Source: Candidatus Berkelbacteria bacterium
GTDB taxonomy: Bacteria > Patescibacteriota > UBA1384 > XYA2-FULL-43-10 > CAINNR01
DNA length: 49,994 nucleotides
Assembly (NCBI GenBank): GCA_037142675.1
Contig: JBAXAF010000006.1
Coordinates: 1-49,994 of the forward strand
Direction: 5' to 3'
The position numbers were made by a program, and so were the translations under genes. Under the pieces are notes generated by a model that worked only from the letters and a program-made list of their open reading frames with translations, was not told where the DNA came from and ran no database searches. Shown here piece by piece: positions 5,603 through 31,012 of the stretch. Positions within the stretch are counted from its first letter, which is position 1. Each line of letters opens with the position of its first letter.

Positions 5603-8149
5603 TTGGATACTTATAATTATAATTCGACGACAACAACCGCCAGCAATAATATTTGGTGGTGGGTTTTGGCTGTCATTGCACTGGCAGTGGGAATTTATTT
5701 TTTGTACAAATATTTGCAACGGATAATTTTGTACTATTATCAGCTGCGAAAAACTCAGAATTGGGTGATGTTAAAAATTTCTATCCCCAAGGAGCGTTTT
5801 GCAGAAGAGAACGATCAGCGAATGGATTTTCGCGAACTGGCTGCAGTTATTGAGCCATTTTTGTCGAATATTGAGTCGCTTTTTGACCCGAACATACAAA
5901 AGAAACTTGCAGGGCAAGACCATATTAGCTTAGAAATTATTTCTAAAAAAGGTTTGGTATTTTTTTACATTGGTGCGCCGGAGATATTCCGTGACGCAAT
6001 TGAAAAAAATATTTTGGCCCAATATCCGGATGCAATTTTGGAGCTGGATAAAGACAGGGGATTTTCAGTCTTTAAAGATATGGAAGGCGAAGTTGCAGCT
6101 GGAAACCTAAGATTGCTAAAAAAGTTTTTCTTTCCAATCAAAACATATCGCTATTTGGAATATGATCCATTGAACGGAATTGTGAACGCGCTTTCAAAAT
6201 TAGGCGCTGAAAGAAATGCCGCGGTCCAGATTTTAATTCGCCCAACGGACAACACTTGGAGGTTTGCACTTGATAAGGTGGCCAAAAATATTCAGGCTGG
6301 AAAATCGGGAAGTTACTATTCATCGTCGTTTAATCGCCGAATGGGGGAGAGCTTCTTTAAATTTTTGGGTGACGTTGGCAAATCAGCCAGTGGCAAATCA
6401 CTAATGGAAGAGGAAAAAGATAAGCAGGCCCAGAACCAATTTCGCCTGAACCCTATCCAGGAGCAGCAGCTAAAGTTACTGGCTGAAAAGGGTGCAAAAA
6501 CCGGTTTCGATACTCAGGTTAGAATTATTGCCGTTGCTCCAACTGCCGAGCAAGCAAAGGAAACCTTAAAAACTATTTTCATGGCTTTTTCGCAATTCTT
6601 CGCTCCTGACAACAACGGCTTTAAGTTTAAAAAAGCTAAGCGTTTGAGGGAGACTGTTGCTAATTATATTTACAGAATTTATGGCAGAGAGCCGAGAATG
6701 CTGTTGAATACAGAGGAAGTTGCTTCACTTTTTCATTTACCGAACCGCTTCACCGAAGCACCGAATATCGCTTGGGTGTATTCGAAAAAATCTGCACCAC
6801 CACCACAAATGCCAACCGAAGGTATTATTATCGGCGAAACGAATTATCGTAGCCAGAAGCAGTCTATTCGAATAAAAGATACTGATAGGGTTCGCCACAT
6901 TTATATGGTAGGAAAAACTGGTGTAGGTAAAACCGTATTATTTGAAAACGCTATTATGCAGGATATCCGAGATGGCAAAGGCGTCGCTTATTTGGATCCA
7001 AACGGTGATGCGATTCAGTATATTTTAGAGCATATACCAAAGGAACGGGCCGAGGATGTAATTCTTTTTGACCCGTCTGATATTGAGCGTCCAATGGGGC
7101 TAAATCTCTTGGAGTGGAAGACGAACGAACAGCGCGACTTTTTGGTCCAGGAGGCGATTCAGATTTTCTACAAGCTTTTCGATCCAAACCAAACAGGTAT
7201 TGTTGGTCCGCAGTTTGAGCATTGGATGAGAAATGCCGCCCTGACTTTAATGGCTCATCCAGATGGCGGAACATTAATTGATATTCCGCGGCTCTTCACT
7301 GACCCGGATTTTGAAAAGGAGCGAGTTAAGTTCGTAACCGACCCGGTTGTTAGATCATTCTGGGAAAAGCAGATGGCCAAAACATCAGATTTTCATAAGT
7401 CTGAAATGTTGAATTATTTCACTTCCAAATTTGGTCGGTTCATGACTAATGATATGATGCGCAATATTATCGGCCAGCCAAAATCAGCGTTTGATTTTCG
7501 TGAAGTGATGGACGGCAAGAAAATTTTACTTTGCAAGCTATCAAAAGGTTTAATTGGTGAAATTAACGCCTTTTTGCTGGGAATGATTATCGTCTCAAAG
7601 ATCGCTATTGGCGCCTTTTCACGGCAGGATCAAACCGAAGAAGAGCGCATACCATTTTATCTTTACGTTGATGAGTTCCAGAACTTTATTACCGACGTAT
7701 TTTCAACGATCCTGTCCGAGTCCAGAAAGTATAAGTTAGCTTTAAGTATCACTAACCAGTATATTTCTCAGCTAGACGAAAAGACCAGAGACGCTGTAAT
7801 TGGTAACGCTGGTAATTTGATTGCTTTTAGGGTTGGTGCTGCTGACGCTGAGTTTTTAGTCAAGGAATTTGCCCCAATTGCCGTTGATGATTTAACCAAT
7901 GTCGATAAATTTAATTTCTACATTCGTGAACTAATTGATAATGCTCCGATGCCGGCTTTTAATGGTCAAAGCATGCCCCCTGATCCTAACGGCAACAAAG
8001 AGTTGGCTGAAGCTATCAGGCAGTTATCGCGTCTAAAGTACGGGAACTCAAGAGAGGTTGTTGAGTCTGAAATAAGCGAACGTTCTCAAATTCATAATAT
8101 TGATTTGCCGGGGATTGGCGAAGGGAATGCCAAAGGCCCAACCGGTTAA
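5603..8149 (+). CDS. VirD4/TraG-like type IV coupling ATPase (HerA/FtsK superfamily) with N-terminal TM
   Basis: Walker A VGKTGVGKT, Walker B LYVDEFQNF, 'LSESRKY' and 'GNAGNLIAFRVG..DAEFL' motifs. TTG start after AAGGAGGGG. Confidence 0.9.
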   Translation: MDTYNYNSTTTTASNNIWWWVLAVIALAVGIYFLYKYLQRIILYYYQLRKTQNWVMLKISIPKERFAEENDQRMDFRELAAVIEPFLSNIESLFDPNIQKKLAGQDHISLEIISKKGLVFFYIGAPEIFRDAIEKNILAQYPDAILELDKDRGFSVFKDMEGEVAAGNLRLLKKFFFPIKTYRYLEYDPLNGIVNALSKLGAERNAAVQILIRPTDNTWRFALDKVAKNIQAGKSGSYYSSSFNRRMGESFFKFLGDVGKSASGKSLMEEEKDKQAQNQFRLNPIQEQQLKLLAEKGAKTGFDTQVRIIAVAPTAEQAKETLKTIFMAFSQFFAPDNNGFKFKKAKRLRETVANYIYRIYGREPRMLLNTEEVASLFHLPNRFTEAPNIAWVYSKKSAPPPQMPTEGIIIGETNYRSQKQSIRIKDTDRVRHIYMVGKTGVGKTVLFENAIMQDIRDGKGVAYLDPNGDAIQYILEHIPKERAEDVILFDPSDIERPMGLNLLEWKTNEQRDFLVQEAIQIFYKLFDPNQTGIVGPQFEHWMRNAALTLMAHPDGGTLIDIPRLFTDPDFEKERVKFVTDPVVRSFWEKQMAKTSDFHKSEMLNYFTSKFGRFMTNDMMRNIIGQPKSAFDFREVMDGKKILLCKLSKGLIGEINAFLLGMIIVSKIAIGAFSRQDQTEEERIPFYLYVDEFQNFITDVFSTILSESRKYKLALSITNQYISQLDEKTRDAVIGNAGNLIAFRVGAADAEFLVKEFAPIAVDDLTNVDKFNFYIRELIDNAPMPAFNGQSMPPDPNGNKELAEAIRQLSRLKYGNSREVVESEISERSQIHNIDLPGIGEGNAKGPTG

Positions 8150-8854: not shown

Positions 8855-8877
8855 AATAAATAATTTTGGGGAAAAGA

Positions 8878-9924
8878 ATGACAGAAGCAAAAGAAAATTT
8901 AGCTCATGCGGGCAATCTGGTCGAAATAGTCAACGACCTAATGTTGGTATTGAATGAAAAAGAAAAGCGATCAATCGTTGGTCGTTTCGGTTTTACTGGT
9001 AAGAAAGAGACATTGTCAGCAATTGGGCGAGAATTGCGCCTCTCCAGAGAGCGCGTTCGACAAATTGAAAAAAATGCCCTACGAAAGATGTCTGAATTGA
9101 TGAAGAAAAGCCATTCCTCAATGATCAATGAAGTCGCTGGGACTTTAGAAAAATCAGGCGGAGTTATTGTAGATGATCTAATTCCTGAAGATTTCCTAAA
9201 GCTTGCCAACGACCAAAAATTTGCACGCAATTATCTGCGACTTGTTCTAACTATTATTGCCAATACTGAAAAAATCAATGAGAGTGATAAATTCAAAGAA
9301 GGCTGGAGATTGAAAACTGTTACGAGTGATAAGATTTTGTCAGTTATTACCAAGGCGATTGAATATTTTAAGGCTGAAGAAATTCCACAAACTTTGGAAG
9401 GTCTAGGAAATGAAATTCCGGCCATCGGCAAAATGGATAGCAATTTTGTTATGTCCTGCATTCAAATTTCTAAAAAATTGATTGTTGCCAAAAATGGCAT
9501 GATTGGTCTTTCCGGCTGGCCTTCGGTTAATCCGAGAAATGTTAGGGATAAAATTTATTATGTTTTAAAAACATCAGGTCAGCCACTTCATTTTACGGAA
9601 ATTACTTCCTCTATTGCCAGTCTTGAATTCGACAAAAAACGCGTAGTCAGGGCCACTGTTCACAACGAGTTAATCGCCGATGACAGGTTTGTGCTGATTG
9701 GGCGAGGAATTTATGCTTTGCGCGAATGGGGATATAGTGACGGGACTGTTTATGAGGTTATTAAAAATATTCTCTCTAACAGTAAAAAACCACTTATTTC
9801 AACCGAGATTATTGAACTAGTAAATAAATCCAGAAAAGTTAAGAAAAACACAATCGTAATTAATTTGCAGACCAAAAAAGAATTCAAAAAGGTCTCTGGT
9901 GGTTACGTTTTTGAGAAGCTCTAA
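8878..9924 (+). CDS. Sigma-70 region 4 HTH plus winged-helix (HARE-HTH / RNAP delta-like) protein
   Basis: 'ETLSAIGRELRLSRERVRQIEKNAL' is a sigma4 HTH; C-terminal 'PLHFTEI...TVHNELIADDRFVLIGRGIYALREWGY'. ATG at 8878 preferred over TTG at 8866. Confidence 0.8.
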   Translation: MTEAKENLAHAGNLVEIVNDLMLVLNEKEKRSIVGRFGFTGKKETLSAIGRELRLSRERVRQIEKNALRKMSELMKKSHSSMINEVAGTLEKSGGVIVDDLIPEDFLKLANDQKFARNYLRLVLTIIANTEKINESDKFKEGWRLKTVTSDKILSVITKAIEYFKAEEIPQTLEGLGNEIPAIGKMDSNFVMSCIQISKKLIVAKNGMIGLSGWPSVNPRNVRDKIYYVLKTSGQPLHFTEITSSIASLEFDKKRVVRATVHNELIADDRFVLIGRGIYALREWGYSDGTVYEVIKNILSNSKKPLISTEIIELVNKSRKVKKNTIVINLQTKKEFKKVSGGYVFEKL

Positions 9925-10075: not shown

Positions 10076-13000
10076 ATGACGTTTTTACTCTATTTAATTT
10101 ATGCTGTTCTAATAATAGGACCGGTGTATTTTTTATATCTGTGGTGGAAGGTGACTGAAACGAAAAAAAAGGTTGTTTGGTCAGAGAAACAAGAATACGA
10201 CACTTTATTAGTTGAGGTGCCTAAAAATAACGAAAAGGCTCCGCTTTCTGCCGAGCAAATGTTTGCATCAATCCACGGTATTTATACCGACGCAGCTGAC
10301 TTTCAGCCATCTCTCAGTTTTGAAATTGTTTCAATTGATAAGTTTGTTCAGTTCTATCTGCATGTGCCGAAGCATTTGGTTGATTTTGTTGAAGGTCAAA
10401 TTTACGCTCAGTATCCAACAGTGGAAATCAGTCAGGTAGCAGACTACAGCGAAAAAGTTGACTTAGGTGGCAAATTTTCGGCTGGTTGCGAATTGATTTT
10501 GACCAAGGAAGATGTTTTCCCAATTAAGATGTTTTCAGATTTCGAAGTCGACCCGCTTTCTGGTATTACGTCGGTAATGTCTAAAATTCATGCTGGTGAG
10601 GAAATTTGGCTACAGTTTGTTATTCGTCCCGTTGGCGACGAGTGGCAGGAGCGGGGGATTGATTATATCGACCGGGTTAAAAAAGGCCAGGATAAAACTG
10701 TTGGTTTTAAGGATTTTAATAAGACCATCCGAAAAGCCAGCAAAGAATTTAGTAAGAACTTTTTAAAGTTGGTTCTTAACCCGCATGCAGAGCTAGAGGG
10801 GGCAGCAGCCGCATCCGAAGTGAAGCTTTCCGGTCCGGTTGAAGAGGCTCTGAAGAGTATTGAATTTAAAATCGTTAAACTTGGCTTTGAAACTAAAGTT
10901 CGGTTGGTGGCCGTGTCTGACGACCCTACTTCTGCTAGGACTAAAGTTCAAAGTTTAGCCGCCGCTTTTAAGCAATTTAATACCACTAACGGCAATGGTT
11001 TTAGGCACTCAGAAATTGTAATCAATGATGAAAATTTTATACAGAGCTACAGGGGCCGTGAATTTGAGGATAGGGGATACGTTTTAAATATTTCCGAGCT
11101 GGCAGCAGTTTATCATTTGCCGCATCAAACAGTCGAGACTCCTCACATTGTCTGGGCCGGGAGCAAAAAAGGGGAACCGCCATCAAATTTGCCATTATCG
11201 GAAAATGTTGACCCAAAGTCATTAACTGTCCTTGGTGAAACCAATTTTAGAAATGTTTATCGTAAATTTGGTATTAAACTCGAAGATAGGCGAAGACACT
11301 GTTATATCATAGGAAAGTCAGGTACTGGAAAGTCCACACTTATAGAAAACATGGCAATCGATGACGTTGTTGAGGGCCGCGGGGTAGTTGTTGTCGACCC
11401 TCACGGAGACTTGGTGGACAAGGTCTTGGCTTGCGTGCCTGACCATCGGATTGATGATGTTATTGTTTTTGATCCTGCTGATCGATCTTATCCAATTGCT
11501 TTTAACCTACTGGACAAAGTTGAGGATGATTTTAAAGGTATGGTAGCGTCAGGCTTTGTTGGTATTTTTAAGAAAATATTTGGCGAGTCTTGGGGTCCGA
11601 GGCTCGAGCACATACTACGAAATACAGTTTTAGCTTTATTAGATTTTCCTGAATCGACTATGTTAGACATTCCTCGGATGCTTACGGAAAAAAGGTTTCG
11701 CGAAAAGGTCGTTAGTTTTGTTACAGATACGGTTATTAAAGAGTTCTGGATTAACGAATTCGCACAATATGATGCCAAATTCCGGACTGAAGCAGTTTCT
11801 CCAATCTTGAATAAAGTTGGTCAGTTTTTGTCGACCGCGACCATTAGAAATATTGTTGGCCAGCCGCATTCACGAATTAATATTCGCGACATTATGGATA
11901 CGCAAAAAATTCTTCTGATAAATCTTTCTCGTGGTAAAATCGGCGAAGACAACTCAGCGCTCTTGGGTGCAATGATGATTACCAAAATTCAACTTTCGGC
12001 TATGAGCCGTGCGGACGTTACAATCGATAAGCGCCCGGATTGTTATTTGTACGTTGATGAGTTCCAAAACTTCGCCACTGAATCATTTGCAGTTATATTG
12101 TCAGAGGCCAGAAAATATAATTTGAATTTAACAATTGCTAACCAGTATATTACTCAGATGCCGGAAATTGTGCGCGATGCGGTTTTTGGTAACGCTGGAA
12201 CAATTATCGCTTTCCGAGTTGGTGGTGCTGACGCTGACTTTCTGGTTAAGGAATTTGAGCCGATATTTGAAGCAAATGATTTGGTTAACTTGGATAGATA
12301 TCAAATCTATACCAAGTTGCTGATTGATGGCATTACTAAGCCGGCTTTTTCTGCCAGGACCCTGGCACCGGTTGAAAAGCTTTCCGGTAACCGAGATACA
12401 ATTATTGAAACGTCACGAAAAAATTATGCTGCGAATCGCAACGAAGTCGAGGCCATGATTGTTGAAAAATCCCGTGAGCTGGAAGAGGAGCTAAAAGCAG
12501 AGTCAGAAGATTATTTTGCCAATCGATCAAATCCAGCCGCTTCTGTCGACAAGGTTCCAGACAAACAGTTTGAAAGACCTAATCGACCTGTGGCCAGAGA
12601 AGCCGTACCGGAAAAGGTTGTAGCCGTTTCTCAGCCATTGCCTGCATCACCAGTAGCAGCTGCAGCGCCGCCAGTTAGTGCGCCTGTTGACCCAATTAAT
12701 CAAATTACTGAAGAAGCAGCTCAGGAGGTTCCGAAAGAGAGAAAGGCTAGATTTTTGAAATGGCAAAATATAATTGGTGATAAGATTTACAAAGAGCAAA
12801 CTGCTCGCGGTGGCGTAAAGTGGTTTGTTGGACAGAAAATTACACCTCTGATGTTTGTCGAGCAGGGGATTTCGGTTGATGAGGCGGGGAGTCAGATGTT
12901 GAAAACCATGGAAAAAGCCTATGGTGTAAAAATCGAAACCACTGGGGCAACAGTGCCAACCGAAAAAAAGGACGATGATAATAAGTCACCTGCAGGAGGG

Positions 13001-13216
13001 GTGATAGAAGTTACACCGAGGACCGATGATCCGCAACCAAGCAGCCAGCCTGAAGGTAATAATGAAATAACGACGGGCGCAGAACCAAAAGCAACAGCCC
13101 CACCAGAGATTCCCAAGGAGATTCCGGTTGATAGTCCGACTAGTTATCAGCCAGCGCAGGCTACTGCAGTTAAGGATGAAAATCCTCTGCAAGAAGGCGT
13201 AGCGGTTAGTCTCTAG
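10076..13216 (+). CDS. Second VirD4/TraG-like coupling ATPase with long disordered C-terminal tail
   Basis: Walker A IGKSGTGKS, Walker B LYVDEFQNF, 'LSEARKY', N-terminal TM. Paralog of 5603..8149. Confidence 0.9.
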   Translation: MTFLLYLIYAVLIIGPVYFLYLWWKVTETKKKVVWSEKQEYDTLLVEVPKNNEKAPLSAEQMFASIHGIYTDAADFQPSLSFEIVSIDKFVQFYLHVPKHLVDFVEGQIYAQYPTVEISQVADYSEKVDLGGKFSAGCELILTKEDVFPIKMFSDFEVDPLSGITSVMSKIHAGEEIWLQFVIRPVGDEWQERGIDYIDRVKKGQDKTVGFKDFNKTIRKASKEFSKNFLKLVLNPHAELEGAAAASEVKLSGPVEEALKSIEFKIVKLGFETKVRLVAVSDDPTSARTKVQSLAAAFKQFNTTNGNGFRHSEIVINDENFIQSYRGREFEDRGYVLNISELAAVYHLPHQTVETPHIVWAGSKKGEPPSNLPLSENVDPKSLTVLGETNFRNVYRKFGIKLEDRRRHCYIIGKSGTGKSTLIENMAIDDVVEGRGVVVVDPHGDLVDKVLACVPDHRIDDVIVFDPADRSYPIAFNLLDKVEDDFKGMVASGFVGIFKKIFGESWGPRLEHILRNTVLALLDFPESTMLDIPRMLTEKRFREKVVSFVTDTVIKEFWINEFAQYDAKFRTEAVSPILNKVGQFLSTATIRNIVGQPHSRINIRDIMDTQKILLINLSRGKIGEDNSALLGAMMITKIQLSAMSRADVTIDKRPDCYLYVDEFQNFATESFAVILSEARKYNLNLTIANQYITQMPEIVRDAVFGNAGTIIAFRVGGADADFLVKEFEPIFEANDLVNLDRYQIYTKLLIDGITKPAFSARTLAPVEKLSGNRDTIIETSRKNYAANRNEVEAMIVEKSRELEEELKAESEDYFANRSNPAASVDKVPDKQFERPNRPVAREAVPEKVVAVSQPLPASPVAAAAPPVSAPVDPINQITEEAAQEVPKERKARFLKWQNIIGDKIYKEQTARGGVKWFVGQKITPLMFVEQGISVDEAGSQMLKTMEKAYGVKIETTGATVPTEKKDDDNKSPAGGVIEVTPRTDDPQPSSQPEGNNEITTGAEPKATAPPEIPKEIPVDSPTSYQPAQATAVKDENPLQEGVAVSL

Positions 13217-13253
13217 AGATGAGTTTTTAAAAAGTTGAGCACAATTTGTGAGG

Positions 13254-13281
13254 AAAAACGCCAGATAGCTGGCGTTTTTTT
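13254..13281 (+). terminator. Intrinsic terminator (bidirectional form)
   Basis: AAAAACGCCAG-ATAG-CTGGCGTTTTTTT. Confidence 0.85.
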
Positions 13282-13500
13282 AAATATCGATAGGGGACCG
13301 CAAACAATTTGCACTTTTATATTTTGGTTTATTTTTGCTAAAAATCGAAAAAATCAGAACAAGATATTACAAAATTTAACTGTGCAAAAAAAGGTAATAT
13401 TTGATGAGTTTTTTTCGAGATAGTTATTGGCGGTTATAACAAGCATAATTTATCCGTGTATTAGGCTCAAGTTGCATGTCACATTTCCGAATCATAAAGT

Positions 13501-13528
13501 ATGTCGCATAAGATACATTATGCGACAT
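13501..13528. other. dif-like Xer recombination site (symmetric) / replication terminus
   Basis: ATGTCGCATAA-GATACA-TTATGCGACAT, 11-6-11 architecture; left arm resembles the E. coli XerC arm GGTGCGCATAA. Lies at the +/- gene-orientation switch. Confidence 0.8.
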
Positions 13529-13754
13529 ACTACGAATTGGCTACAACTAAGGCCAATTCACGCTTCTTTGACTATGGATCGCGTATCGCCATTTATATCG
13601 TTTCTTCAATATTTTTATAACTGCCTCCAATTGAGCACGTTTTCTCTCTCAAAAAGCCCCAGAATGCCCCAGTTTGATAGTTTATTACTTGGCTGACCAA
13701 TTGGTCGTATGGATAACATTACTGATGTAATTTGCAAGTCCTGGACAGGATAAA

Positions 13755-13913
13755 ATAAAAACTCGACTGAAGACATAGTCTTCAGTCGAGGGTTCGCTGG
13801 AAAGTAACGCGGCATAGGCTTTGGACGGTACGCACAACCTAGGCTCCGGTGCCTTAACGGTTGCGGTTTCACGGTTATTCCGTGCGTTTGTTCCCAGCAC
13901 GACTGTCCAAAAC
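13755..13913 (-). ncRNA. Unassigned structured small RNA (~160 nt)
   Basis: Own promoter at 13920-13948, GC-rich paired body (UUUGGAC/GUCCAAA; ACGCAC/GUGCGU), terminator hairpin plus U-tract. No RBS/ORF inside the predicted transcript. Confidence 0.65.
13756..13790 (-). terminator. Intrinsic terminator of the sRNA
   Basis: CTCGACTGAAGAC-TAT-GTCTTCAGTCGAG-TTTTTA on the - strand. Confidence 0.85.
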
Positions 13914-13919
13914 TCTTAT

Positions 13920-13948
13920 ATTGTATCATACAAATACTAATTTGTCAA
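13920..13948 (-). promoter_or_regulatory. sigma70 promoter of the sRNA
   Basis: TTGACA-17-TACAAT with extended TG. Confidence 0.8.
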
Positions 13949-14175
13949 TAGATTTTTGCACCAAAAAAAATCAGAATATTATTCACTTTATTCTGATGTT
14001 CCCTTGAACCTGTTTGGTTGTTTTATCTAGCAAAAAATAAAAAGTCAGAAAAGAGGATTGCCTACTCCCCTACTGTTGAGCATGAGGTTGGGTTAGGGCT
14101 AGGAACCCAGTTTGGCCAATGGAAGTAGATGCCCGAAGTTGGTTTTTTCTAACTTCTACTTCGAATTTGTCTCTA

Positions 14176-15093
14176 CTAAACTGGCTTCTTGACCTGTTGA
14201 GTAACTTCTAAATGTTTCTGCCAGCTGATTAAAAGCATGGTAGCGATAAAAATCGATGAATAAGTTCCAAAGGTAATACCGGCAATTAATATTAAAACAA
14301 AGTGGCTAATAGATGAGCCGCCTATCAAGAACAATGCCAAGAGAACCATAATCGTTGTTAGCGAGGTGTTAATTGACCTGGAAATTGTTTGCAATATACT
14401 GTCATTTGCCAGTGTTTCAATATCAGCCCCGGGATGGCGCACCATGTTTTCGCGCAGTCGATCGAAAACGACAATGGTATCATGTACAGAAAAACCCATT
14501 ACCGTAAGCAGAGCTGTAATGAACAGGGCATCAACTTGCATGAAGGGATAAAAGTGGCCGACAACGGAAACAAATCCGGTAGTGACAATTAAATCGTGTA
14601 TTAAGGCTGCAACAGCGGTAACCCCAAAACGCCATGAGCTAGCCGGTTTTGGAACTTTTCTGAATGCATAGGACACAAACAGAATTATGGCCAGTGAAGC
14701 TACTACAATGGCCCATATTGCCTTATTGGTGATGTCTCGACTAACTACTGGCCCGATTGTTTGATAGCTTGACTCAGTGATACCAGAGTTGTTTTTCTGC
14801 AGTTCTGAAATTAATTTATTGTGTCCATCGGGTGAAAGATTCCTTGTCCGTAGAATTACTTTATCCAATCCAGAGGTACTGGCAGTATCAACTGTTACGC
14901 CGGCACTTTCACTTTCAGATTTTAGAGTTTCTATTTGACTTGCAATACCAGGTTTCGTCAATTCAATAATTGACCCACCCTTAAAATCAATGCCAAAATT
15001 TAGTTTCCAAATGAAAATTGAAAGAATGCTCAGGATAATTAAAATCGATGAGAATATGTAAAAGTAAGTTCTTTTTTTGACTAAATTAAACAT
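14176..15093 (-). CDS. secF: Protein translocase subunit SecF
   Basis: 'LNFGIDFKGG' and 'GFSVHDTIVVFDRLREN' motifs; 6 TM. Confidence 0.97.
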   Translation of the reverse strand: MFNLVKKRTYFYIFSSILIILSILSIFIWKLNFGIDFKGGSIIELTKPGIASQIETLKSESESAGVTVDTASTSGLDKVILRTRNLSPDGHNKLISELQKNNSGITESSYQTIGPVVSRDITNKAIWAIVVASLAIILFVSYAFRKVPKPASSWRFGVTAVAALIHDLIVTTGFVSVVGHFYPFMQVDALFITALLTVMGFSVHDTIVVFDRLRENMVRHPGADIETLANDSILQTISRSINTSLTTIMVLLALFLIGGSSISHFVLILIAGITFGTYSSIFIATMLLISWQKHLEVTQQVKKPV

Positions 15094-16381
15094 GTAGATA
15101 TTTCCTTAGGTTTGTTTTTGCAAGCAAAAGTAAGAATGTTCGACTGACTGTTACAGCCGTAAAGATTGAAACTAAAACTCCGACTGCGAGGGTTAGCGCA
15201 AACCCTTTAATGATGCCTGTTCCAAATGAAAACAGAATTATACAAGTTATTAGGGTGGAGAAATTAGAGTCGCGAATGCTGTTCCATGCTCTCTTAAAAC
15301 CTTCTTCAATTGCCGTGACTATATCTTTCCCGAGTCGCAACTCTTCTCTTGTCCGCTCAAATATCAAGATGTTTGCGTCTACCGCCATACCAATGGAGAG
15401 AATAAAGCCGGCTATTCCAGCCAGAGTCATGGTGACAGGAATAATTTTGAATAGTGCTAAAGAAATCAGACTATAAATTACCAGCGCCACAACGGCGACG
15501 GCTCCTGGAAATTTGTAATGGATAACCATAAATAACCCAACAAGAATTAGACCGATTATTCCAGCTGTTAAGCTTCGTTTGATTGAATCGGCGCCAAGGG
15601 TTGCACCAACATTCTGTTGGGCAATAACTTTAGCTGGAATTGGAAGCATCCCCTCATTTAGGCGGTCGGAAAGTTTTTTTGCTTCTTTAATGTCTTTTTG
15701 TCCCGTAACTATTGCTTTACCGTCAGCAATTTCTGCTTGAACAGTTGGAGCGGAAACGATTCTGTTGTCTAGCACAATGGCGATCTGTTTGTTTAAATTG
15801 TCTTTTGTCATGGTGGCAAATTTTGATTTGCCGGCGTCATTGAATGTCAATGAAACTACCGGTGCACTGGTACCAGCGCCTGAAGAGCTATTTTGATAAG
15901 TAACATCAGAAGAGATCAAATCCTTGCCTGTTAAATCAGTTGGTTGCCAATACCCGGGGTACGAATAATCGGTTTGATAATAATCTTGTAGTTGTAGCCC
16001 GGCTGTCGCGTCTGCGGCCTGGGTCATAAAGGTTAGTTCATACGTTTGGCCAATGGTTGCAATGGCAACGTTTATATCTTTTATGCCAGGAAGTTGAATT
16101 AAAATCTGATCAGTCCCCTGCTGTTGAATTGTTGGTTCGGCTACGCCAAGTCTGTCGATTCGCTGTCTGAAAACATTGATAAGATTATTTAAGTCCTTGG
16201 ACTTATCGGTCGATTTTGACAGATCAGCAAGGTATGTTAGTTCTGTTCCACCTTGGAGGTCGAGCCCCAGGTGAGTTTTAATGTCTTTGCCAAATAAATT
16301 AGGGCCTTTTGGTACATCAATTAAGACTGCCAAAGCCAGGATTATTATTATCGAACCAAAAATATACCAAATTCTTTTCAT
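15086..16381 (-). CDS. secD: Protein translocase subunit SecD
   Basis: 'LGLDLQGG', 'GVAEPTIQ', 'IGMAVDANILIFER' motifs. Confidence 0.97.
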   Translation of the reverse strand: MKRIWYIFGSIIIILALAVLIDVPKGPNLFGKDIKTHLGLDLQGGTELTYLADLSKSTDKSKDLNNLINVFRQRIDRLGVAEPTIQQQGTDQILIQLPGIKDINVAIATIGQTYELTFMTQAADATAGLQLQDYYQTDYSYPGYWQPTDLTGKDLISSDVTYQNSSSGAGTSAPVVSLTFNDAGKSKFATMTKDNLNKQIAIVLDNRIVSAPTVQAEIADGKAIVTGQKDIKEAKKLSDRLNEGMLPIPAKVIAQQNVGATLGADSIKRSLTAGIIGLILVGLFMVIHYKFPGAVAVVALVIYSLISLALFKIIPVTMTLAGIAGFILSIGMAVDANILIFERTREELRLGKDIVTAIEEGFKRAWNSIRDSNFSTLITCIILFSFGTGIIKGFALTLAVGVLVSIFTAVTVSRTFLLLLAKTNLRKYLHV

Positions 16382-24531: not shown

Positions 24532-24649
24532 CCAACCACTCCTTTCATGCCCCTGAAAGAGAAAACCCTGAAGCGAACTCCAGGGATTCCTCATTTAAAG
24601 GGCTTTGACTCTAAGGGCAATTTTTAATACCCTCATCGTCAACTTCTCC

Positions 24650-24678
24650 ATTGTAGCACATAAGTTTGTTGTTGTCAA
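24650..24678 (-). promoter_or_regulatory. sigma70 promoter of cassette B
   Basis: TTGACA-17-TACAAT with extended TG. Confidence 0.75.
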
Positions 24679-30952: not shown

Positions 30953-31012
30953 ATTATATCAGGCTAACAGTTTTATGTCAAATAACCAGCCGCCTCCAAA
31001 TAAAAAACCGTC
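30953..31012 (-). repeat. Cassette junction repeat 1 (terminator end plus TTGACA-17-TATAAT promoter)
   Basis: ATTATATC-N15-TGTCAA-N11-CCTCCAAATAAAAAACCGTC; same length and ends as 31728..31787. Confidence 0.8.

Follow-up and report, generated by a model that had tools for sequence, protein, structure and literature searches.

The DNA considered here, called the window throughout, is a stretch of 49,994 nucleotides (nt) comprising positions 1 to 49,994 of contig JBAXAF010000006.1 (assembly GCA_037142675.1) from a Candidatus Berkelbacteria bacterium of the candidate phyla radiation (CPR), whose genome (G000) amounts to 989 kb in 37 contigs and is rated 100% complete. The window carries secD and secF, a dif-like palindrome downstream of them and, converging on these from the opposite strand, a gene for a protein resembling VirD4/TraG-type coupling proteins. 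In the gap between secF and dif lies a short unit that runs from a near-consensus promoter to an intrinsic terminator, and the small RNA (sRNA) that this unit may encode is the subject of the analysis. The features of the locus are collected in Table 1.

A promoter-to-terminator unit between secF and dif

Table 1. Features of the secF-dif gap and its surroundings (positions in the window; ORF, open reading frame; aa, amino acids; MFE, minimum free energy).
Feature	Position	Strand	Basis or remark
-35 box TTGACA	13943..13948	-	motif scoring
Extended -10: TG (13928-13927), a, TACAAT (13925-13920)	13920..13928	-	motif scoring
Predicted transcription start	near 13913	-	deduced from promoter spacing, not observed
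RNA body, 124 nt, 54.8% GC	13791..13914	-	no credible ORF; fold at chance level
Intrinsic terminator: stem-loop 13790-13762, then tail TTTTTATTTT 13761-13752	13752..13790	-	
Predicted 5' domain, closing helix nt 3-10/89-96 (13912-13905 with 13826-13819)	13819..13912	-	MFE and centroid, prediction only
Hairpin CACGG/CCGUG inside the 5' domain	13884-13870	-	predicted
Hairpin CCGCAACC..GGC-ACCGGA-GCC..GGUUGUG(C)G inside the 5' domain	13867-13830	-	predicted
Candidate crossing or alternative helix GCUGGGAA-CAA-ACGC (13898-13884) with GCGU-UAC-UUUCCAGC (13810-13796)	13796..13898	-	predicted
104-aa ATG ORF	13615-13929	-	starts inside the promoter spacer, upstream of the predicted start; crosses the terminator
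71-aa GTG ORF	13685-13900	-	crosses the terminator; no Shine-Dalgarno sequence seen before the GTG
Segment replaced in G002: promoter, RNA and terminator stem	13762..13962	-	flanks align, segment does not
Conserved AT-rich hairpin and T8, terminator-like, left edge of the variable slot	13963..13996	-	just upstream of the unit
Direct repeat CTGGGGC-ATT-CTGGGGC, then T5	13656..13672	-	between slot and dif, kept in all family loci
dif-like 34-bp perfect palindrome, 14-bp arms around 6-bp centre TGTATC (minus strand)	13498..13531	.	
secF	14176..15093	-	upstream of the unit, same strand; two terminator-like elements between
secD	15086-16381	-	upstream of secF
Gene for 1046-aa protein resembling VirD4/TraG-type coupling protein	10076..13216	+	converges on the unit

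The two promoter boxes stand 17 nt apart, and the promoter scores 11 of 12 in addition to carrying the extended TG, which makes it the top site between 13000 and 14600. Sites scoring at least 11/12 number 88 in the genome, 32 of them with TG, as against 24-40 (1-4 with TG) in five shuffled genomes; near-consensus promoters with TG exceed chance in this genome. Sites of this grade, with or without TG, directly precede its RNase P RNA, tmRNA and tRNA genes. About 155 nt beyond the -10 box stands the terminator stem-loop, a hairpin of 13 bp (seven of them G-C) with a 3-nt loop and a stability of -20.6 kcal/mol, and the non-coding RNA predicted from these signals would measure about 152-160 nt. 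Its body is richer in GC than its intergenic neighbourhood (37.4% on one side, 34.8% on the other) and than the whole genome (42%). An initial interpretation of this locus, made from the letters and their open reading frames (the sequence-only reading), had described an extended TTGACA-17-TACAAT promoter, a 13-bp hairpin with a T-tract ending the unit and a position beside dif; all three are present, the promoter above shuffle level.

The unit recurs with zero differences in three lake-water DNA metagenomes, two of which are possibly the source of the assembly; among these data, contigs from one further study match 13362-13898 and 13914-14088. As these copies carry no variants, they bring no covariation information.

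Four ORFs of at least 20 aa overlap the unit, and by inspection none is a short hydrophobic peptide. The 104-aa ORF has no match in Pfam and the 71-aa ORF none among 1.84 billion representative proteins, while tblastx of the unit against its own genome and all fetched loci gave only the self-match below E 0.7. The earlier statement that there is no Shine-Dalgarno sequence or plausible ORF therefore stands insofar as no credible ORF was found, and needs correcting in that the 71-aa and 104-aa frames do overlap the unit, both reading through the terminator. No gene follows on the unit's strand; beyond the terminator lie conserved non-coding blocks, dif and the converging gene. A riboswitch or other cis-regulatory leader was rejected because no regulated gene lies downstream on the same strand. 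Decay from a former gene was likewise rejected, tblastx and blastn-short of the unit against its own genome and all loci having come back empty.

Orphan status and predicted fold of the RNA

At gathering scores, no Rfam family matched anywhere in the window. In E-value mode, segments of 701 nt and 181 nt gave only eukaryotic snoRNA and miRNA noise and terminator look-alikes at E 2-9, and nine syntenic loci of relatives gave two noise matches only. ARAGORN placed no tRNA or tmRNA in the window, and the RNase P RNA (C7:46253-46724) and tmRNA (C9:45054-45436) of the genome lie on contigs other than that of the unit. When the 201-nt unit was compared with 60 relatives by BLAST, three matched, each at an unrelated gene and only along the promoter, which makes up the first 31-34 nt. 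The body alone, run by BLAST against the remaining 43 genomes of the order, yielded a single 24-nt match, which falls within an unrelated coding sequence of G011. With a covariance model (27 pairs) derived from this one sequence, the 60 relatives gave no match at E<=0.1, and the nine syntenic slots, scanned without filters, gave at best 10.5 bits. No match to the unit came from collections of phages, plasmids or viral contigs. In JGI metagenomes, searched by way of SecF, the best relative was 69% identical and none was near enough; the slot of that relative (L056) has the same architecture with AT-rich filler. On these searches, the predicted RNA is an orphan among all collections searched, and the sequence-only reading of a stand-alone non-coding RNA matching no known family was borne out, in that an Infernal-type scan gave no Rfam match at any threshold, no downstream gene exists and no protein relatives were found.

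The same reading had offered a diverged SRP- or 6S-type RNA as an alternative, and this part fell once the rest of the genome had been checked. The covariance models for signal recognition particle (SRP) RNA, RF00169 and RF01854, matched nowhere in the genome at E<=1 and not on the locus at E<=10; among control genomes, the small-SRP model matches 13/14 and the large-SRP model 11/14. The protein partners are equally elusive in G000: the Ffh M domain (PF02978) and the SRP54-type GTPase domain (PF00448) have no match, TIGR00959 and TIGR00064 reach 19 and 16 bits (cut-offs 473 and 261), which is P-loop noise of which the best match is RecG, and motif scans of the six-frame translation turned up no SRP-type GTPase. 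For 6S RNA, model RF00013 matched neither the locus, even at E<=10, nor any part of the genome, a negative to be read with the control, in which this model, weak outside a few phyla, matches only 5/14 genomes.

The SRP result extends beyond this genome. RF00169 matches 0/41 genomes of the order, and PF00448 matches 0/61 genomes of the class and 0/61 across the phylum (both sets including G000), the controls giving 14/14. By these searches, no SRP pathway component is detectable in G000 and its relatives, which would mean that the pathway has been lost, a remarkable event, or that the searches are blind to it; if the observation stands up, the missing components may carry more weight than the RNA itself. 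A literature search on SRP, Ffh or FtsY in CPR, Saccharibacteria, Berkelbacteria, Patescibacteria and Parcubacteria brought up no paper on SRP presence or absence. One two-organism study (PMC10768705) has ftsY and SRP genes under APY09_ locus tags. For 6S RNA in Patescibacteria, nothing relevant was found, the retrieved passages of PMC8321541 being irrelevant.

The predicted architecture, common to the MFE and centroid structures, is a three-way junction; a single-stranded 3' tail and then the terminator come after it. For the whole unit, the MFE is -59.4 kcal/mol (z -4.5), a value that arises because the terminator folds strongly; the 124-nt body alone folds at -38.1 kcal/mol (z -1.3 against mononucleotide shuffles). 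The helices proposed from the sequence (UUUGGAC/GUCCAAA, ACGCAC/GUGCGU, GCAACC/GGUUGU and GGC-ACCGGA-GCC) can all be located, and so can a crossing helix between nt 17-31 and 105-119, predicted at -16.8 kcal/mol. A nested fold that uses the crossing helix is nearly isoenergetic with the MFE structure of the body (-36.6 vs -38.1 kcal/mol). The proposed crossing helix thus exists but is not unusual, since 25.7% of 300 shuffles contain a long-range duplex equal to or better than the best of the body. The fold is a prediction without statistical support, and the case carries a caution, since the helices chosen by eye within this GC-rich island, itself set in AT-rich intergenic DNA, proved no better than chance.

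Turnover of the slot and its surroundings

The nearest species (G002) has a SecF 98% identical at the protein level, with secF 94.8% identical in DNA and 113/138 fourfold sites identical. Between the two genomes, the left flank of the slot is identical at 106/138 positions and the right flank at 111/124, whereas the unit between them is identical at 70/197, close to random, and the edges are sharp. Neutral drift would leave about 80% identity where the unit shows about 35%, which indicates that the segment was replaced rather than drifted. What fills the slot in G002 looks like a unit that lacks a promoter and a terminator hairpin. Two further species of the genus (G001 and G003) and the other genera each hold yet another slot sequence, no pair of which can be aligned.

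Across the family, nine genomes could be evaluated, with two more cut by contig ends and one (G006) keeping the ancestral gene. Four of the nine slots (G000, G003, G010 and G008) hold an 11-12/12 promoter, a GC-rich RNA of 115-308 nt and a terminator, with whole-unit z of -4.2 to -5.4 (-4.4 to -5.4 in G003, G010 and G008), and the G008 unit is likewise an orphan. A search for shared sequence among the slot RNAs by 15 pairwise local alignments gave 0.035 as the lowest shuffle fraction. In G006 and at 17 loci from other families, a gene for a 126-aa small membrane protein sits in the slot after secF instead (loci with it include L011, L019-L024, L026, L029, L031, L032, L034 and L035). This gene was not found in G000, has left no tblastn trace in the slot and is missing from most of the family. 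The distribution indicates that the ancestor of the order held the 126-aa membrane-protein gene in the slot, that the family lost it and that the gap has since turned over quickly.

The surroundings of the slot are stable by comparison with its content. The order secD-secF, dif, converging coupling-protein gene is kept across the order. The dif-like palindrome is unique in the genome (next best 19/28), with no site above 16/28 in 13200-14200, and a dif-like site downstream of secF has at most one mismatch of 18 in 7/11 family loci and is recognisable across the order. The CTGGGGC repeat may be what is left of a terminator, or else a site that binds a protein and points at dif; certain genomes from other families have a perfect hairpin terminator at the corresponding place, behind the small membrane-protein gene. 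At 14031-14070 (-) and about 13270-13330 (+), 3' of secF and of the 1046-aa gene, stands a conserved element of the form (A)GGGGA...GCAA...CTTTTTAT(A)TTTT; both copies are oriented toward dif. Found in relatives as well, the element is a lineage-typical 3' element. The 1046-aa gene is the second of two paralogous VirD4/TraG-like coupling-protein genes (5603-8149 and 10076-13216, +), between which a gene at 8866-9924 (+) encodes a protein with a sigma-70 region 4 and a HARE-HTH domain. Because the 3' end of the second paralog is kept in place in relatives, it looks like a core gene and not like part of a mobile element.

Other candidate RNA units came to light in the genome. At C12:5800 (+) lies a second promoter-to-terminator unit (124 nt, 56% GC), in which neither an ORF nor a Shine-Dalgarno sequence occurs; it is an sRNA candidate and means that the GC-rich unit near dif is not unique in kind. 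A long AT-rich hairpin RNA of about 156 nt is predicted at C1:73618(-). Three similar leaders behind near-consensus promoters, at C15:6641(-), C4:10482(+) and C10:35558(-), share the pattern GTGT(T/C)GTTACG(A/G)T...(A/C)TCGTAA(A/G)GCA and form a repeated RNA motif. In the window, at 24560-24678 (-), a leader of ~110 nt with a terminator-like hairpin lies behind an 11/12 promoter with TG and ahead of an 84-aa ORF. A clearly similar leader occurs in G009 (L002, about 1530-1650; GTTGAC...GTCAAAGCCCTTTAAA..GAG..ATCCC...), and the two differ by apparently compensating changes in one hairpin; with no Rfam match, this is a possible cis-regulatory RNA. At 30981, 31756 and 32292 (-), three 12/12 promoters stand within 1.3 kb; the leader behind each is GC-rich and has a Shine-Dalgarno sequence and an ATG.

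A candidate lineage-specific sRNA and its rivals

We regard the unit (13948-13752, minus strand) as an autonomous gene for a recently acquired, lineage-specific regulatory sRNA, a reading to which we give about an even chance. It possesses a promoter and a terminator of its own and is non-coding, as expected of a trans-acting sRNA, and such a role is our best guess because this is the commonest kind of gene of this type. We propose that the sigma-70 promoter with its extended -10 drives synthesis of the non-coding RNA up to the strong terminator, that the unit was gained, or substituted for other DNA, once the lineage had separated from the nearest species sequenced, and that the RNA may regulate in trans without Hfq or ProQ (or CsrA), making contact through regions predicted to be open, namely two loops, AAUAA (nt 36-40) and ACCGGA (nt 65-70), and parts of the linker (nt 97-124). 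As a candidate for an orphan sRNA, set next to dif in a gap of rapid turnover, it would be ordinary in kind and modestly interesting for a CPR genome.

A number of observations weigh against this interpretation. Transcription of the unit is read from signals in the DNA. The body reaches z -1.0 against dinucleotide shuffles, 15.7% of 300 of which fold as well, and its reverse complement folds at -37.3 kcal/mol; with the fold at shuffle level and no strand asymmetry, nothing points to selection on structure. No homolog appeared in anything searched, which puts covariation out of reach, and the RNA once described as structured owes its signal to the terminator alone. Judged by the refutation named in the sequence-only reading, a lack of conserved and covarying structure, the claim of structure does not survive. 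Hfq, ProQ and CsrA were not found in the genome. Among 852 putative translation-initiation regions, the best perfect complement spans 13 nt, to the 5' untranslated region of a gene on contig C15, and was equalled by 7/100 shuffled RNAs (in a k-mer complement search with gene starts called crudely). The unit is absent from the closest species, which makes it dispensable for the genus, and 5/9 evaluable family slots lack a promoter-terminator unit. Finally, the weak residual similarity to the G002 filler, with a global alignment score reached by 3.3% of shuffles and a local one by 7%, leaves a small chance of extreme divergence instead of replacement.

Most of these observations would be expected if the slot held non-functional filler, that is, foreign or scrambled DNA in a recombination-prone, terminus-proximal gap with a leftover promoter and terminator, perhaps transcribed. 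We rank this as the main rival of the sRNA reading and consider it unlikely though worth serious weight: slot content that differs in every relative, a body without strand asymmetry, the lack of a target above chance, the slots empty of such units and the G002 sequence, which looks like a unit lacking a promoter and a terminator hairpin, all speak for it. It accounts poorly for an 11/12 TG promoter and the region's strongest terminator standing 160 nt apart on the same strand, an arrangement improbable by accident, for complete units in the same slot in four genera, and for a GC island bounded exactly by promoter and terminator; a genome of ~1 Mb, moreover, has little spare DNA. A further possibility, that diversifying selection acts on the slot as a hypervariable RNA locus, in which a fixed expression site delivers a different RNA in each species, for instance in host/phage interaction or self/non-self recognition, strikes us as improbable. 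The unit would then be one allele of a secF-dif expression site whose turnover lies far above neutral drift and which may be tied to the neighbouring type IV coupling-protein genes, an extension that we hold to be just as improbable. Four of four species of the genus and all nine evaluable family genomes lacking the ancestral gene do differ between conserved flanks, slot identity is 35.5% vs 82% at fourfold sites, and in four genomes RNAs of no relation to one another are each framed by a complete promoter and terminator. However, the five slots without a unit do not fit a fixed expression site, the promoters conform to the general consensus of the lineage so that orthology is not required, the slot RNAs share no motif or fold, no partner gene is linked to the slot, and neither a flanking recombination site nor a second dif was found.

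The remaining rivals concern the nature of the product and seem to us less probable again. The unit could be the mRNA of a small protein, encoded by the 71-aa GTG ORF, by its internal TTG start behind GGAG (about 50 aa) or by a 17-aa GUG ORF; open frames exist, and by eye GGAG lies 6-8 nt ahead of in-frame TTG and GTG codons. We doubt this strongly, since the long ORFs would need to read through the 13-bp terminator, the 71-aa product is without match in the protein collection and without translated similarity in its own genome or the fetched loci, the downstream part is by eye not in frame in G003 or G010, and no ORF overlapping the unit is short and hydrophobic. That the unit encodes a 6S-like RNA, which would bind the sigma-70 RNA polymerase holoenzyme, is very unlikely. 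The unit has a suitable size and a strong promoter, a search of the whole genome detected no 6S RNA, and the sequences of 6S RNAs are poorly conserved; against this, RF00013 finds no match, the 5' end is predicted to pair with nt 89-96 in a three-way junction and not to form a rod with a central bubble and paired ends, and absence from species of the same genus is unexpected for a housekeeping RNA. A diverged SRP (4.5S) RNA is extremely unlikely. The idea draws on the failure to find such an RNA elsewhere in the genome and on the adjoining secDF genes, but Ffh and FtsY were not found as partners, no covariance model matches, no GNAR-capped helix-8 motif was seen by eye, and the unit is not conserved, having no homolog in 60 relatives.

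If the unit is transcribed, as the sRNA reading supposes, even CPR bacteria with genomes of ~1 Mb would acquire and shed small RNA genes of their own at the pace at which species arise, and a defined spot next to dif would be a repeated site of such gain and loss. The locus also offers a concrete target for lake-water metatranscriptomes.

Several known systems share traits with the unit. Small SRP RNAs of bacteria (RF00169) resemble it as short stand-alone RNAs, here beside protein-export genes, and 6S RNAs (RF00013) as strongly promoted stand-alone RNAs of ~150-200 nt, here in a genome with no other detectable 6S; the unit departs from the former in having no model match, no detected Ffh or FtsY in its genome and no conservation, and from the latter in matching no model, in a predicted fold that is not a rod with a central bubble and in being unconserved within the genus. 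Type I toxin-antitoxin loci likewise combine a short, strongly promoted unit of ~150-200 nt with a variable intergenic site and possible long-range 5'-3' pairing, whereas the unit has neither a short hydrophobic ORF on either strand nor a convergent antisense promoter of comparable quality. With Xer-integrated elements at dif (IMEX, pdif modules), the unit has in common variable DNA near dif. Such an Xer/dif-integrated element was rejected because only one dif exists, with no further dif-like site beside the unit; in addition, the variable segment, at ~200 nt far smaller than these elements, lies 230 nt from dif with conserved sequence in between. Sponge RNAs of the CsrB/RsmZ type are similar in their species-variable sequence and length, their strong promoter and terminator and their GGA motifs in or beside loops. 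This candidate was rejected because no CsrA was found in the genome, and by count the 124 nt hold four GGA, as against about two expected from composition. From the accessory trans-acting sRNA genes, the unit, known from its sequence, differs in that neither of the chaperones Hfq and ProQ turned up in the genome and in that target complementarity and predicted fold both stay at chance level, while it shares with them a sigma-70 promoter of its own, a predicted length of ~150 nt, an intrinsic terminator, the lack of an ORF and a place in a variable intergenic region.

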